Assembly: GCA_023248595.1 (NCBI GenBank)
Contig: JAHFEG010000010.1
Span: forward strand, 1,092-65,091
Length of the DNA: 64,000 bases
DNA from: Myxococcales bacterium
GTDB taxonomy: Bacteria; Myxococcota; UBA727; JABDBI01
Direction of reading: 5' to 3'
Of this stretch, positions 21,971 through 40,520 are shown piece after piece (within the stretch, counting starts at the first letter, position 1; the number at the start of each line of letters is the position of its first letter). A program made the translations under genes and the position numbers. Under the pieces are notes generated by a model that saw only the letters and a program-made list of their open reading frames with translations, had not been told where the DNA came from and did no database searches.

Positions 21971-21992
21971 TGGCCATTGTGCTGAAAGTTGT

Positions 21993-22017
21993 CATGGTCG
22001 GGCTTGGTCCGACCATC
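21993..22017. repeat. short palindromic hairpin repeat (TGTCATGGTCGG...CCGACCAT), copy 1
   Basis: Perfect 8-bp stem atggtcgg/ccgaccat. The same element in opposite orientation is at 40438-40464. Confidence 0.7.
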
Positions 22018-22039
22018 TAGTGTACAACAAATCTTGTGT

Positions 22040-22105
22040 TCTAGATTCCGGAACGAGTCCGGAATGACAAATCCTTGATTGTCATGCCAGCAGGATGAAT
22101 CGCTT
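22040..22105. repeat. REP/MITE-like composite palindromic repeat, copy A
   Basis: gattccggaacgagtccggaatgacaa + ttgtcatgccagcagg. Matches copies at 36144-36208 and 39926-39999 (reverse orientation). Confidence 0.7.
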
Positions 22106-22236
22106 AAGTGAATGCTGCCCCTACTTTGATAACCTGGGGTCTTAGCGCCCCCTGGCCAATGACGACTTTAACGCTTCATAGGAGCAGTCCTATAAGCGCA
22201 AAGCGCGGGAAACTATATCAATTTTATATCAGACTC

Positions 22237-27539: not shown

Positions 27540-28661
27540 ATGCTCAAACGACCATTTTTTTATTTTATCCATTCTGTCTGTTTTTTTTGTTCTGTTTCAC
27601 TGATGAGCGAGACTAAGATAAATGACGTGCAGATATTGGCGACTCATAATAGTTTCAAACAATATCTCGACCCCAATTTAAGTGGCATCATCGAAACCGT
27701 CTGTAGTCTATCAGATATCTCTTTAGAGGAGTATCAGCACCTTCCTTTAAAAGATCAGCTAGATAAAGGTGTAAGGGGTTTTGAACTCGATGTGTTTGCA
27801 GATCCCGAAGGTGGCAGATACCGGGAGTTTCGGTTTTTATCACTGATTGGCGAAGATGGCCAATCGCATGATCCTGACCTCGATAAGCCTGGTTTTAAAG
27901 TGATGCATGACGTTAATTTTGATTTTCACGCGACGTGTCATCTTTTTACCGGATGTCTTTCAGAAATTAAAGAGTGGTCGAATGCTCACCCTAACCATTT
28001 GCCTATTTTTATTCATGTACAAGTAAGAGACGAACCGACGCCAATCATTGGTAAGTATTTAAGTGTCATTGGCCTTGTTCAACCGATTATCATCACCAAG
28101 AAATTGCTAGACGCGCTTGACAAGGAAATCAGAGCCACGATCCCTGCTCAGCAATTAATTACGCCTGATCAAGTGCGTGGAAATTATATGACGTTGCGTG
28201 AGGCTGCTTTAGCAAATTCTTGGCCTAATTTGGCTGATGCTCGTGGTAAATTTATTTTTTATATGGATGTCAGACCAGGTGTTCGCGATTTATATTTAGA
28301 AGATCACCCTCAACTTGAGGGGAGGGCCATTTTTACGGCGCCTGCAGATTCGAGTGCAGACGATGCTGCTTTCATAATTTTGAATAGCCCCGTTGAGGAT
28401 GGCGGAAAGATTAAAGAGCTCGTCTTGAAAGGCTTTATTGTGCGAACAAGAGCAGATTCAGGAACAGTTGAGGCCTACAATAACGATAGAAGAACCTGGG
28501 AAGCTGCACTCTTAAGTGGAGCACAAATTATCAGCACGGACTATATTGTGCCAGATCCAAAAACAGGAACCGATTACTATGTTTTCATGCCAAACGGTAA
28601 TCCAGGTCGATGTAATCCCATCCGCGAGTCATTTTGTGATGCAGACACGATTGCTGAATAA
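27540..28661 (+). CDS. secreted PI-PLC-like phosphodiesterase (X-domain type)
   Basis: 373 aa. Signal peptide, catalytic motifs 'ATHNSF' and 'RGFELDV', second His 'VMHDVNFD'. Confidence 0.55.
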   Translation: MLKRPFFYFIHSVCFFCSVSLMSETKINDVQILATHNSFKQYLDPNLSGIIETVCSLSDISLEEYQHLPLKDQLDKGVRGFELDVFADPEGGRYREFRFLSLIGEDGQSHDPDLDKPGFKVMHDVNFDFHATCHLFTGCLSEIKEWSNAHPNHLPIFIHVQVRDEPTPIIGKYLSVIGLVQPIIITKKLLDALDKEIRATIPAQQLITPDQVRGNYMTLREAALANSWPNLADARGKFIFYMDVRPGVRDLYLEDHPQLEGRAIFTAPADSSADDAAFIILNSPVEDGGKIKELVLKGFIVRTRADSGTVEAYNNDRRTWEAALLSGAQIISTDYIVPDPKTGTDYYVFMPNGNPGRCNPIRESFCDADTIAE

Positions 28662-36143: not shown

Positions 36144-36208
36144 CGTCATTCCGGAACAAGTCCGGAATCCACAAAATCCTGGATCCCGCACCAAGTGCGG
36201 GATGACAA
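36144..36208. repeat. REP/MITE-like composite palindromic repeat, copy B
   Basis: gtcattccggaacaagtccggaatcc ... ggatcccgcaccaagtgcgggatgacaa. Lies between convergent TPR and sodB genes. Confidence 0.7.
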
Positions 36209-36252
36209 TGTTGCTGGTCATTTCCATTGTACTGGCAATGACGACGTTGCTC

Positions 36253-39448: not shown

Positions 39449-39591
39449 GTGAATTTTTTTCAACCGACCGATTGCATTCAAATTTAGTTTTAATTTATGA
39501 TTTTTTTACTGCTTTGATTCACATGGTGTGCATCAAAAAAAGTACCGCGCCAATACCCTAGTAAAGTTAAGGCGCGGCAGATCCACTTTAT

Positions 39592-39621
39592 GGAGTCGAG
39601 AAAAACTAACATCTCGACTCC
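39592..39621. promoter_or_regulatory. perfect 10-bp inverted repeat (GGAGTCGAGA-N10-TCTCGACTCC) upstream of island ORF; a second IR (CCGCGCC-N19-GGCGCGG) at 39545-39577
   Basis: Read directly from the sequence. Located in the 210-bp gap between holA and the 251-aa ORF. Confidence 0.4.
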
Positions 39622-39658
39622 ACATGTCAAGCTTGGTTAAAAGCTTGGGAGTGTTGTT

Positions 39659-40414
39659 ATGACAAATACAGTTTGTTTGCCTGTAGAAATTATTCGCAAC
39701 TTTAATTTATCGCCACGTGCCAGGCTTGTCTGGGCAGAGCTTTCTTTGTTGCCCAAAGGCGCTGTTGGCGAGTTCGTCGTCAAAGCAAAAGAGCTTAGCA
39801 AGTTGTTGGGAATTTGTGATAGCACCTTGCGTCGTGCCGTGAAAGCACTGGAAGAAGCGGGGTTGATTCAGTGTGTTGGGCTTTTTGAGAAACGCCACAA
39901 GAAATATGTGTTTAAATTATATGCTTGTCATTCCGGACTCGTTCCGGAATCCATCCCAAGCACTGAAAACCTGGATGCCAGCCTGCGCTGGCATGACAAA
40001 CAAGAGCAGCCAGCTCCCTGTCCAATTACACCGTTTAGTAATTGGAAAGAAACATACAAAGAATTAAAAGCACAAATGAAACCCGAGCCCACACCAAAAC
40101 CAGAACCAGAACGGAAAGTGGATCTAAGTGAAACTGATTTGCTGCGCATGAAATATCGCTTTGCCAATGGAAAACCCTGCAGCGATGACAAGCCAAAACT
40201 TGCTTACGCTGAGCAGCTCTACAACTTTTATCAAAATCAATGGCGTGCTCAATTTCCACTTTTAAACGGTAAAGACAACCGCCCGCTTTTAGATGCTGGT
40301 CTCATCGAATATATTATCATGAACGAACCAGCGAATGTTGCCGGTGGAAAAATGATGGACATTGTCGACAGGGAGTTGCAACGCTTTACCGACTTTCCTA
40401 TCGATAGGACATAA
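39659..40414 (+). CDS. phage/plasmid-like winged-HTH protein carrying an in-frame palindromic repeat element
   Basis: 251 aa. N-terminal wHTH-like region (LSPRARLVWAELSLL...ELSKLLGICDSTLRRAVKALEEAGLI). Residues ~89-113 (YACHSGLVPESIPSTENLDASLRWH) are the translation of repeat copy C. Confidence 0.45.
   Translation: MTNTVCLPVEIIRNFNLSPRARLVWAELSLLPKGAVGEFVVKAKELSKLLGICDSTLRRAVKALEEAGLIQCVGLFEKRHKKYVFKLYACHSGLVPESIPSTENLDASLRWHDKQEQPAPCPITPFSNWKETYKELKAQMKPEPTPKPEPERKVDLSETDLLRMKYRFANGKPCSDDKPKLAYAEQLYNFYQNQWRAQFPLLNGKDNRPLLDAGLIEYIIMNEPANVAGGKMMDIVDRELQRFTDFPIDRT
39926..39999. repeat. REP/MITE-like composite palindromic repeat, copy C (inside the ORF)
   Basis: tgtcattccggactcgttccggaatcc ... 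ctggatgccagcctgcgctggcatgacaa. Confidence 0.7.
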
Positions 40415-40437
40415 GCGTTCACTGATTCGTTTTTTGA

Positions 40438-40464
40438 TCATGGTCGGACCAAGCCCGACCATGA
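40438..40464. repeat. short palindromic hairpin repeat, copy 2 (TCATGGTCGGACCAAGCCCGACCATGA)
   Basis: Reverse-orientation match to 21993-22017. Lies between convergent genes, so it may act as a bidirectional terminator. Confidence 0.7.
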
Positions 40465-40520
40465 CACAACACTCCAAACTGAAACCATACGCAGAGAACT
40501 CATTTATATAGCCAGCGTTT

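Follow-up and report, generated by a model that had tools for sequence, protein, structure and literature searches.

Which kind of element are the short palindromic repeats found between merR and recG in the genome of a Myxococcales bacterium (assembly GCA_023248595.1)? They lie in a 64,000-nucleotide stretch of contig JAHFEG010000010.1 (positions 1,092 to 65,091, forward strand), which we call the window and to which all coordinates refer unless another locus is named. An earlier note on this DNA had described five copies of a repeat with TGTCAT...ATGACA termini, which it sorted into two unit types and regarded as repetitive extragenic palindromic (REP) sequences or miniature inverted-repeat transposable elements (MITEs), acting as terminators or mRNA stabilisers and possibly involved in rearrangement. 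The five copies are real, each lying where it had been placed or a few bases away, and the idea of a dispersed family of short hairpin repeats, REP-like in a loose sense, is supported. The REP, MITE and terminator interpretation is loosely right at most. We consider it likely that the repeats belong to the NTS/SRM superfamily, which includes the Neisseria dRS3/NTS repeats and is linked to the Ssn nucleases, and that they persist at positions where they are harmless.

A single family of hairpin modules

Reading of the three repeat-bearing regions, together with a scan for GTCAT followed by a 6-bp hairpin, revealed seven intact hairpin modules and one truncated module in the window. The unit of the family is a module of about 27–30 nt, consisting of a 5′ YGTCAT head, a G+C-rich stem of 6–8 bp closed by a 4–7-nt loop, and a 3′ AT-C-YAG tail, the common format being (T)TGTCAT, a 6-nt stem, the loop, the complementary stem and AT-C(C/T)AG. 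The stem sequence differs among subtypes and the pairing is maintained: perfect 6-bp stems are present in all seven modules, and are lengthened by the AT flanks to 8–11 bp. The modules are often joined tail to tail in doublets of about 60–80 nt, mostly with two unlike stems. This shared architecture merges the two unit types proposed before into one family.

The hairpin at 21993–22017, previously listed as a copy of its own, pairs with the hairpin at 22045–22068 as one doublet, which gives three doublets in all. In doublet A (21989–22070), the left half is a GGTCGG-stem module on the plus strand (21989–22020, TTGTCAT-GGTCGG-gcttggt-CCGACC-AT-CTAG), located 19 nt 3′ of the merR stop codon, and the right half is a TCCGGA-stem module on the minus strand (22041–22070, TTGTCAT-TCCGGA-ctcgt-TCCGGA-AT-CTAG). 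It is followed by a truncated GCCAGC module on the plus strand (22079–22094, TTGTCAT-GCCAGC-agg), in which the second stem arm is missing. The half ending in ...ctggcatgacaa, which had been taken as the second palindrome of the first copy, is this stump, and it forms no stable hairpin on folding (z = +0.2). Doublet B (36144–36208) joins a TCCGGA module on the plus strand (36144–36172, CGTCAT-TCCGGA-acaag-TCCGGA-AT-CCAC) to a CCCGCA module on the minus strand (36179–36208, TTGTCAT-CCCGCA-cttgg-TGCGGG-AT-CCAG), and doublet C (39925–39999) joins a TCCGGA module on the plus strand (39925–39954, TTGTCAT-TCCGGA-ctcgt-TCCGGA-AT-CCAT) to a GCCAGC module on the minus strand (39971–39999, TTGTCAT-GCCAGC-gcag-GCTGGC-AT-CCAG). 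The seventh intact module, D, is single and has the GGTCGG stem (40436–40467, minus strand, GTGTCAT-GGTCGG-gcttggt-CCGACC-AT-GATC).

In the first hairpin of doublet B (36150–36165) the loop reads ACAAG, the reverse complement of the usual CTTGT, while the flanks are still in the plus orientation. Because the TCCGGA stem is self-complementary, the hairpin core of this module may have been flipped in place. Two further pieces, at 22152–22166 (CTGGCCAATGACGAC) and 36232–36245 (CTGGCAATGACGAC), have the motif CTGGC(C)AATGACGAC in common, including a 10-nt exact match (CAATGACGAC), and are weak candidates for degenerate remnants.

In the window, the TCCGGA palindrome ATTCCGGA-N5-TCCGGAAT occurs three times with no mismatches, compared with 0.01 occurrences in shuffled sequences, and the GGTCGG palindrome CATGGTCGG-N7-CCGACCAT is present at two sites, compared with 0.05. 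The generic scan for GTCAT and a perfect 6-bp hairpin returned nine matches, namely the seven modules, one duplicate register and one unrelated match, against a shuffle mean of 1.0 and a maximum of 4. When TGTCATTCCGGA was searched on its own in the window, allowing up to two mismatches, there was no excess over chance; the signal resides in the lead plus the hairpin, not in TGTCATTCCGGA alone.

Folded as single-stranded DNA, the modules give z-scores from −2.5 to −6.5. The lowest belongs to the single module at 40436–40467 (−11.8 kcal/mol, z = −6.5), and the two halves of doublet A give −8.4 kcal/mol with z = −4.1 (21989–22020) and z = −2.5 (22041–22070). Doublet B folds at −17.6 kcal/mol (z = −4.8) and doublet C with z = −4.7. 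The stretch 21985–22112, with doublet A, folds as a junction, in which an outer stem formed by TTGTCAT and ATGACAA encloses two hairpins and an inner CTAG stem.

Probable relationship to the NTS/SRM repeats and the Ssn nucleases

The closest parallel is a family of repeats recognised by small nucleases, for which we rely on Chenal et al. (2025, Nat Commun, PMC11893778). The dRS3 palindrome was described more than 20 years ago, and the NTS/SRM repeats with their Ssn nucleases in 2025. The Neisseria NTS, CGTCATTCCCGCGMAVGCGGGAATCYRG, contains the shorter dRS3 palindrome, and a degenerate "Ssn-related motif" (SRM), for which a pattern was made by hand from 29 genomes, occurs across bacteria. The Ssn nucleases, small GIY-YIG proteins of family cd10448, recognise the motif exclusively in single-stranded DNA and on one strand only, cleave a few nucleotides 5′ of GTCAT, and are inactive on RNA; binding depends critically on the C that follows the palindrome, and cutting on the three nucleotides that precede it. 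Strand-specific binding and cleavage were shown only for the Neisseria and Wolbachia homologues, and in Neisseria Ssn lowers the integration of transforming DNA that bears the motif. A homologue of Ssn is present in 81% of the genomes with more than 200 SRMs, thus not in all; a cd10448 ssnA gene in the same genome, often with the motif on its flanks, is a feature expected of the family.

In the window, GTCAT directly precedes the stem in all seven modules, with T or C at position −1, and the closing AT is followed by C in six of the seven, with a TAG or CAG continuation in four. The TCCGGA modules read YGTCAT-TCCGGA-N5-TCCGGA-ATC-YAN. GTCAT and AT-C hold the positions reported as critical for cutting and binding, respectively, and their conservation fits NTS/SRM.

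The same architecture is widespread elsewhere, for two subtypes with the same sequence, and positions that were not part of the search patterns are conserved in the matches. The TCCGGA type (GTCATTCCGGA-N4-7-TCCGGAATC), scanned in one genome per species, was recovered from at least 120 genome stretches, which belong to many phyla and include Patescibacteria, Dehalococcoidia, Bacteroidota, Ignavibacteriota, Rickettsiales, Sphingomonadales and Campylobacterota, where about 4 are expected by chance according to our estimate. Among the 133 matches listed for this type, 82 have the loop CTTGA, pyrimidines precede the head at −1 and −2, and positions +1 to +3 after the closing ATC read Y-A-G/T. An inverted partner hairpin is present within 250 nt downstream in 55 of these 133 matches and upstream in 12, and the cross-phylum doublets among them have a median length of 74 nt and 24 different partner stems, one of them the canonical NTS stem TCCCGC. 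The GGTCGG type (GTCATGGTCGG-N5-9-CCGACCAT) is found in at least 120 metagenome stretches, and in the matches listed has C at −1 (105/131) and at +1 (117/131), followed by CAYG. The CCCGCA type is also present at three unrelated loci. A search of Rfam gave no family for the repeats.

Some observations were made beside these tallies. The exact TCCGGA-type module occurs in 12 viral contigs of IMG/VR (L133–L144), and phages or prophages may move the hairpins between hosts. In some metagenome contigs the GGTCGG-type doublet is a true REPIN-like palindrome, its two hairpins being nearly identical and separated by about 20 nt (L158, 11366–11437; L189, 6142–6229; L215, 3678–3749), whereas in most other doublets the two stems are unlike. 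A further widespread subclass has a GTCAT head, a TGCGAG/GCAAT stem and a longer loop (GTCATTGCGAGG...GCAATCC); it was seen at L122 (6876–6958), L123 (9639–9675) and L108 (near 2110), and adjoins copies of the gene unit described below in GCA_038920345.1.

Several points weigh against the assignment to NTS/SRM. The published SRM pattern, HGTCWYN(0-2)YYVSBRHN(0-5)WNVSBRGN(0-2)RNCYNB, matches only one of the seven modules (39971–39998; shuffled sequences give 0.1), and the module at 40436–40467 has a G at the C position that is critical for binding. No GIY-YIG gene was detected by regular expression, phmmer or a small purpose-built hidden Markov model (three seeds, one of them E. coli YhbQ), a search that covered the 64-kb window and about 125 kb from relatives. 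The module count refers to the 64 kb of this genome that are visible, and relatives with 72–73% MerR identity have no modules in 13–20 kb, so the family may be sparse in this lineage. In addition, we know of no transposition chemistry for Ssn, and it is a conjecture that nicking by Ssn, followed by repair or copying, would spread the modules.

On the other side, the TCCGGA modules miss the published pattern at one position (as parsed by hand). We do not regard this mismatch as excluding them, given that flank positions not used for selection are those of the family, and since the failure concerns a single position the modules are filed as new stem variants of the known NTS/SRM repeats. Small GIY-YIG open reading frames (ORFs) were found in 4 of about 250 repeat-bearing loci, a scarcity that would fit one enzyme, encoded by a single gene copy, acting on many sites. 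As regards the partner enzyme and the function of the repeats in this genome, we infer that a cognate Ssn may be encoded elsewhere in it and would act on the module sites whenever these become single-stranded, during replication, repair or DNA uptake. Copies would then persist in harmless places, here the 3′ ends where convergent genes meet and the disordered linker of a protein.

Signs of recent copying of single modules

The modules at the merR/recG site have counterparts in a region 18 kb away. The segment 21990–22016 is identical over 27 of 27 positions to 40440–40466, in inverted orientation, and the segment 22044–22070 is likewise a 27/27 inverted match of 39925–39951. The stump at 22079–22094 is identical in 17 of 18 positions to the GCCAGC module at 39986–40003, flank included. 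The order of the modules at site A is unlike that in the second region, and the identity between copies stops within 1–2 bases of TGTCAT and of AT(C). Single modules of about 27 nt, and not doublets, thus behave as the unit of copying.

In two relatives whose MerR is 98% identical (L124 and L125), the merR–recG spacer is 60 nt long and has no module, compared with 266 nt in the window. The spacer was replaced rather than cleanly interrupted (window 21971–22236 against L124 1336–1395), and no target-site duplication could be read from this comparison of occupied and empty site. The C-terminus of RecG is also different, EQSSQ* in the window and ER* in L124, being three residues longer in the window. 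The modules are thus young in this lineage, with site A absent from a 98%-identical relative and identical copies 18 kb away. The region downstream of merR is in addition a synteny break: in relatives with 72% MerR identity, as in L128 (10515 onward), the place of recG is taken by fdhD and by genes for a molybdopterin enzyme, Ddl and an Ank protein, whereas the 98% relative does have recG.

A Rep-like gene unit that carries modules

The region to which the merR/recG modules are identical is a unit of about 1 kb built around a helix-turn-helix (HTH) gene (39659–40414, plus strand, 251 amino acids), with doublet C inside the gene and module D beyond its 3′ end, where it begins 22 nt past the stop codon. 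The product matches Pfam HTH_36 (E = 3.6e-7), a winged-helix family, and a PHROG replication initiation protein/DnaD-like family (E = 8e-7). In the AlphaFold model, a winged-helix domain (residues 5–87) is connected by a disordered linker (88–159, pLDDT <50) to a helical C-terminal domain (160–245), and the best PDB matches by Foldseek are weak ones to the N-domains of RepA_N-type initiators and other winged-helix proteins (E = 3e-3).

The copy at 39926–39999, which had been described as intergenic, in fact lies in frame within this gene, where doublet C encodes CHSGLVPES...LDASLRWHDK (residues ~90–113 of the linker). Both of its modules are also present in the homologous genes of other genomes. 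In 34 homologues the linker is hypervariable and full of peptides encoded by repeats, namely CHSGLVPES, one or two copies of LDASLRWHDK, VIPAQAGIQ and SPALAGEENFSLEKLGEGSLP; a few homologues have none. The last of these peptides is encoded by a second, unrelated repeat in the same linker (DNA ...CCTCGCCTGCGCTAGCGGGAGAGG...; proteins P0011, P0013, P0014 and P0018; L121, 4235–4300), so that hairpin repeats of more than one kind accumulate in the linker.

Upstream of the gene lies a leader of about 190 nt (39470–39658, plus strand), which has an AT-rich start (TTTTAATTTAT) followed by three hairpins and is not itself a repeat. It is more conserved than the coding region and is kept in six loci with different flanking genes. 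Its third hairpin has three different, fully complementary stems among the six loci (GGAGTCGAG/CTCGACTCC, GTCAGTCGGAAGA/TCTTCGACTGAC and AGAACCGG/CCGGTTCT), as read directly from the sequences, RNAalifold having missed it because of the alignment register. The leader has no match in Rfam and is a candidate for a new structured RNA or a DNA origin.

Copies of the whole unit were identified in the window (39470–40467), L121 (3775–4743), L122 (6957–7852), L123 (9797–10911) and L131 (3007–4019), with at least two copies in one assembly, and the neighbourhood differs in each locus (holA/SET; purN/purM; recA/plsC-like; a filamentous-haemagglutinin cluster upstream; an adjacent pterin-4a dehydratase). 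In L123, leader, gene and a hairpin module lie between the arms of an inverted repeat of 120 nt (86% identical), and in L122 a direct repeat of 20 nt, made of module 3′ halves, flanks the unit (TTCGTTCGC[A/C]ATGACGAATT). Such flanking repeats might be read as att or target sites, for which the loci are inconsistent: the window shares just CCGACC, compared with the 20-nt direct repeat of L122.

These features raise the possibility that the modules belong to the HTH unit, or are its footprints, and that the merR/recG cluster is debris or a copy derived from it rather than the result of Ssn activity. The density of strict modules in or near the unit is about 40 times that elsewhere (8 in ~5 kb, compared with 4 in ~105 kb, counted over the window and L121–L132), all three modules of site A have identical or near-identical copies in it, and the internal doublet, being common to homologues in other genomes, is older than site A; the changing gene neighbourhood and the repeats around the unit in L122 and L123 point in the same direction. 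Nevertheless, inheritance of the internal doublet makes the counts within the unit dependent on each other, doublet B has no counterpart in the unit, and the order of modules, which differs between site A and the unit, is better explained by single modules moving than by a derivative formed through deletion. The same hairpin types are present in hundreds of genomes and metagenome contigs that lack such a gene. The HTH family is confined to the relatives of the window among 264 loci, and had no relatives in the JGI metagenomes or IMG/VR. As it was not found beside the repeats in other phyla, we regard it as a lineage-specific carrier or hot spot and not as a general partner, and an origin of the modules in the unit as unlikely. 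A related proposal is that leader and Rep-like gene form an undescribed multi-copy mobile or replicative unit, which would serve as a vehicle or nursery for SRM modules, its linker and 3′ end being hot spots for SRM and other hairpin repeats and the copies at merR/recG resulting from recent seeding by single 27-nt modules. We hold this proposal to be unlikely.

Convergent genes and the terminator question

Four of the five copies described before do lie between convergent genes, as had been claimed: those at merR/recG, doublet B between a tetratricopeptide repeat (TPR) gene on the plus strand and sodB on the minus strand, and module D between the HTH gene and a convergent SET-domain gene. All three repeat-bearing intergenic regions are convergent, compared with 6 of the 58 junctions in the window (p ~6.5e-4, calculated by hand). 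This location, together with the stability of the hairpins, is what could be expected if they were mainly terminators or stabilisers of the 3′ ends of mRNA, the function proposed in the earlier note. However, none of the seven canonical hairpins is followed by a T-run. A terminator scan gave nothing at site A and elsewhere only off-register calls, within the shuffle expectation, and no canonical module was terminator-like. With no T-tails, one doublet translated through in frame, and a close relative (98% identity) that has merR and recG without the hairpins of site A, a dedicated terminator role is unsupported. Moreover, selfish repeats that persist where they are harmless account for the location equally well, and Ssn does not act on RNA (PMC11893778). 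We consider it quite improbable that termination or stabilisation is the main role of the hairpins.

The surroundings of the repeats are ordinary. The genes annotated between 18.7 and 55 kb are of the housekeeping kind, among them pheT, ihf/HU, merR, recG, greA, proC, asnS/aspS-like, tdk, sodB, aat, tatD, holA, rne/rng, hutH, mutY and rpsA. The G+C content is flat, at 0.40–0.45, across the repeat neighbourhood, and the sole mobile-looking neighbour is the HTH unit. The suggestion that clustering beside an island implies a role in rearrangement is not supported, as no island was seen there. PheT and MerR have their nearest named relatives among proteins of metagenome-assembled genomes of Myxococcota/"Deltaproteobacteria" (45–57% identity), and some metagenomic relatives reach 72–100%, the nearest contigs lying in the ENA assemblies ERZ27280176/192/196/197/224. 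Exact look-ups of window proteins, and of proteins P0004 and P0012, gave no match. Gene content and a Pfam match to CBU_0592 had suggested Coxiellales or Legionellales, a placement rejected in view of the PheT and MerR homologues. Eukaryote-like proteins are present in the window, namely a SET-domain protein of 675 amino acids (40521–42548) and a PI-PLC-like protein (27540–28661), and relatives have ankyrin-repeat proteins (L128, 14608–15588) and the mevalonate pathway (L126, L128). These features may hint at a host-associated lifestyle of this uncultured lineage.

REP elements, MITEs and chance

A classical REP or REPIN mobilised by a RAYT (Y1 transposase), or a MITE of an insertion sequence with TGTCAT termini, would also give short dispersed hairpins. 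The family resembles the REP/BIME/REPIN repeats of Enterobacteria and Pseudomonas in its short conserved head followed by an imperfect palindrome, in its inverted hairpin doublets and in its position at gene 3′ ends, and the outer TTGTCAT/ATGACAA termini of the doublets have the appearance of short inverted repeats. For both systems a domesticated enzyme acting on single-stranded DNA has been proposed as partner, an analogy also drawn in PMC11893778. In the strict sense, though, the repeats are not REPs: the head is YGTCAT instead of GTAG or GGAG, the two stems of a doublet are mostly unlike, whereas a REPIN is an inverted duplicate of one REP, and the proposed enzyme is a GIY-YIG nuclease rather than an HUH Y1 transposase. 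A Pfam scan of most ORFs of at least 90 amino acids between 18.7 and 55 kb found no RAYT, Y1, IS200, IS110 or other transposase and no integrase. Nor are they MITEs in the strict sense, since the outer inverted termini are just 7 nt long, none of the doublets A, B and C shows a target-site duplication, and the empty site shows replacement of the spacer and no clean insertion. We know of no insertion sequence with TTGTCAT/ATGACAA ends. We hold a transposase-borne origin of either kind to be very improbable.

Chance palindromes or local duplications of no wider meaning, for which one could invoke that just 64 kb are visible and that TGTCATTCCGGA alone is not above chance at two mismatches, are effectively refuted by the shuffle controls, the two shared exact 27-mers and the hundreds of copies elsewhere with unselected conserved flanks.

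Implications

The finding is largely ordinary, apart from the signs of recent copying and the link to a small Rep-like gene unit. Its main value is in correct labelling: hairpins of this kind are not REPs, MITEs, terminators or small ORFs, and the peptides that they encode, such as CHSGLVPES and LDASLRWHDK, are spurious or extended protein segments. The identical 27-mers, the empty site in a 98%-identical relative and the in-frame tolerance together provide a snapshot of copying at the level of the module, which bears on how SRMs spread. Stem variants outside the published pattern are widespread, TCCGGA in genomes of many phyla and GGTCGG in metagenome contigs, and as these escape the pattern, censuses of SRMs probably count too few. 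Both points go slightly beyond what is given in the available parts of PMC11893778. As a lead of its own, the Rep-like HTH unit may deserve attention.

Comparison with known systems

Rickettsia palindromic elements, of about 100–150 bp, insert in frame in protein-coding genes and are tolerated as an extra peptide. Doublet C resembles them in this respect, being placed in frame in a coding gene; its sequence is unrelated, and the insert is a 75-nt doublet located in a disordered linker.

The likeness to the Neisseria dRS3/NIME repeats consists in a 20-nt palindrome built on ATTCC...GGAAT and in the arrays of intergenic repeats. In Neisseria, dRS3 is reported as a phage recombinase target (PMC11893778). 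The dRS3 consensus ATTCCC-N8-GGGAAT is not that of the window, where ATTCCGGA-N5-TCCGGAAT is found, related in form, and the organism is not a Neisseria, as its PheT is nearest to Myxococcota/"Deltaproteobacteria" proteins.

The NTS/SRM repeats are the closest system. They differ in the stem, which is TCCCGC in NTS and TCCGGA, GGTCGG, GCCAGC or CCCGCA in the window, and in the published pattern, which fits one of the seven modules; furthermore, no ssnA was found in the window, and neither the tail-to-tail doublets nor an in-frame insertion, both present here, is mentioned in the parts of PMC11893778 that were available. What the two have in common is the 5′ (C/T)GTCAT head, the G+C-rich hairpin and the 3′ ATC-YRG tail, in an oriented motif that is present in many copies and spread over phyla, and the NTS stem TCCCGC itself recurs among the partner hairpins of the cross-phylum doublets.

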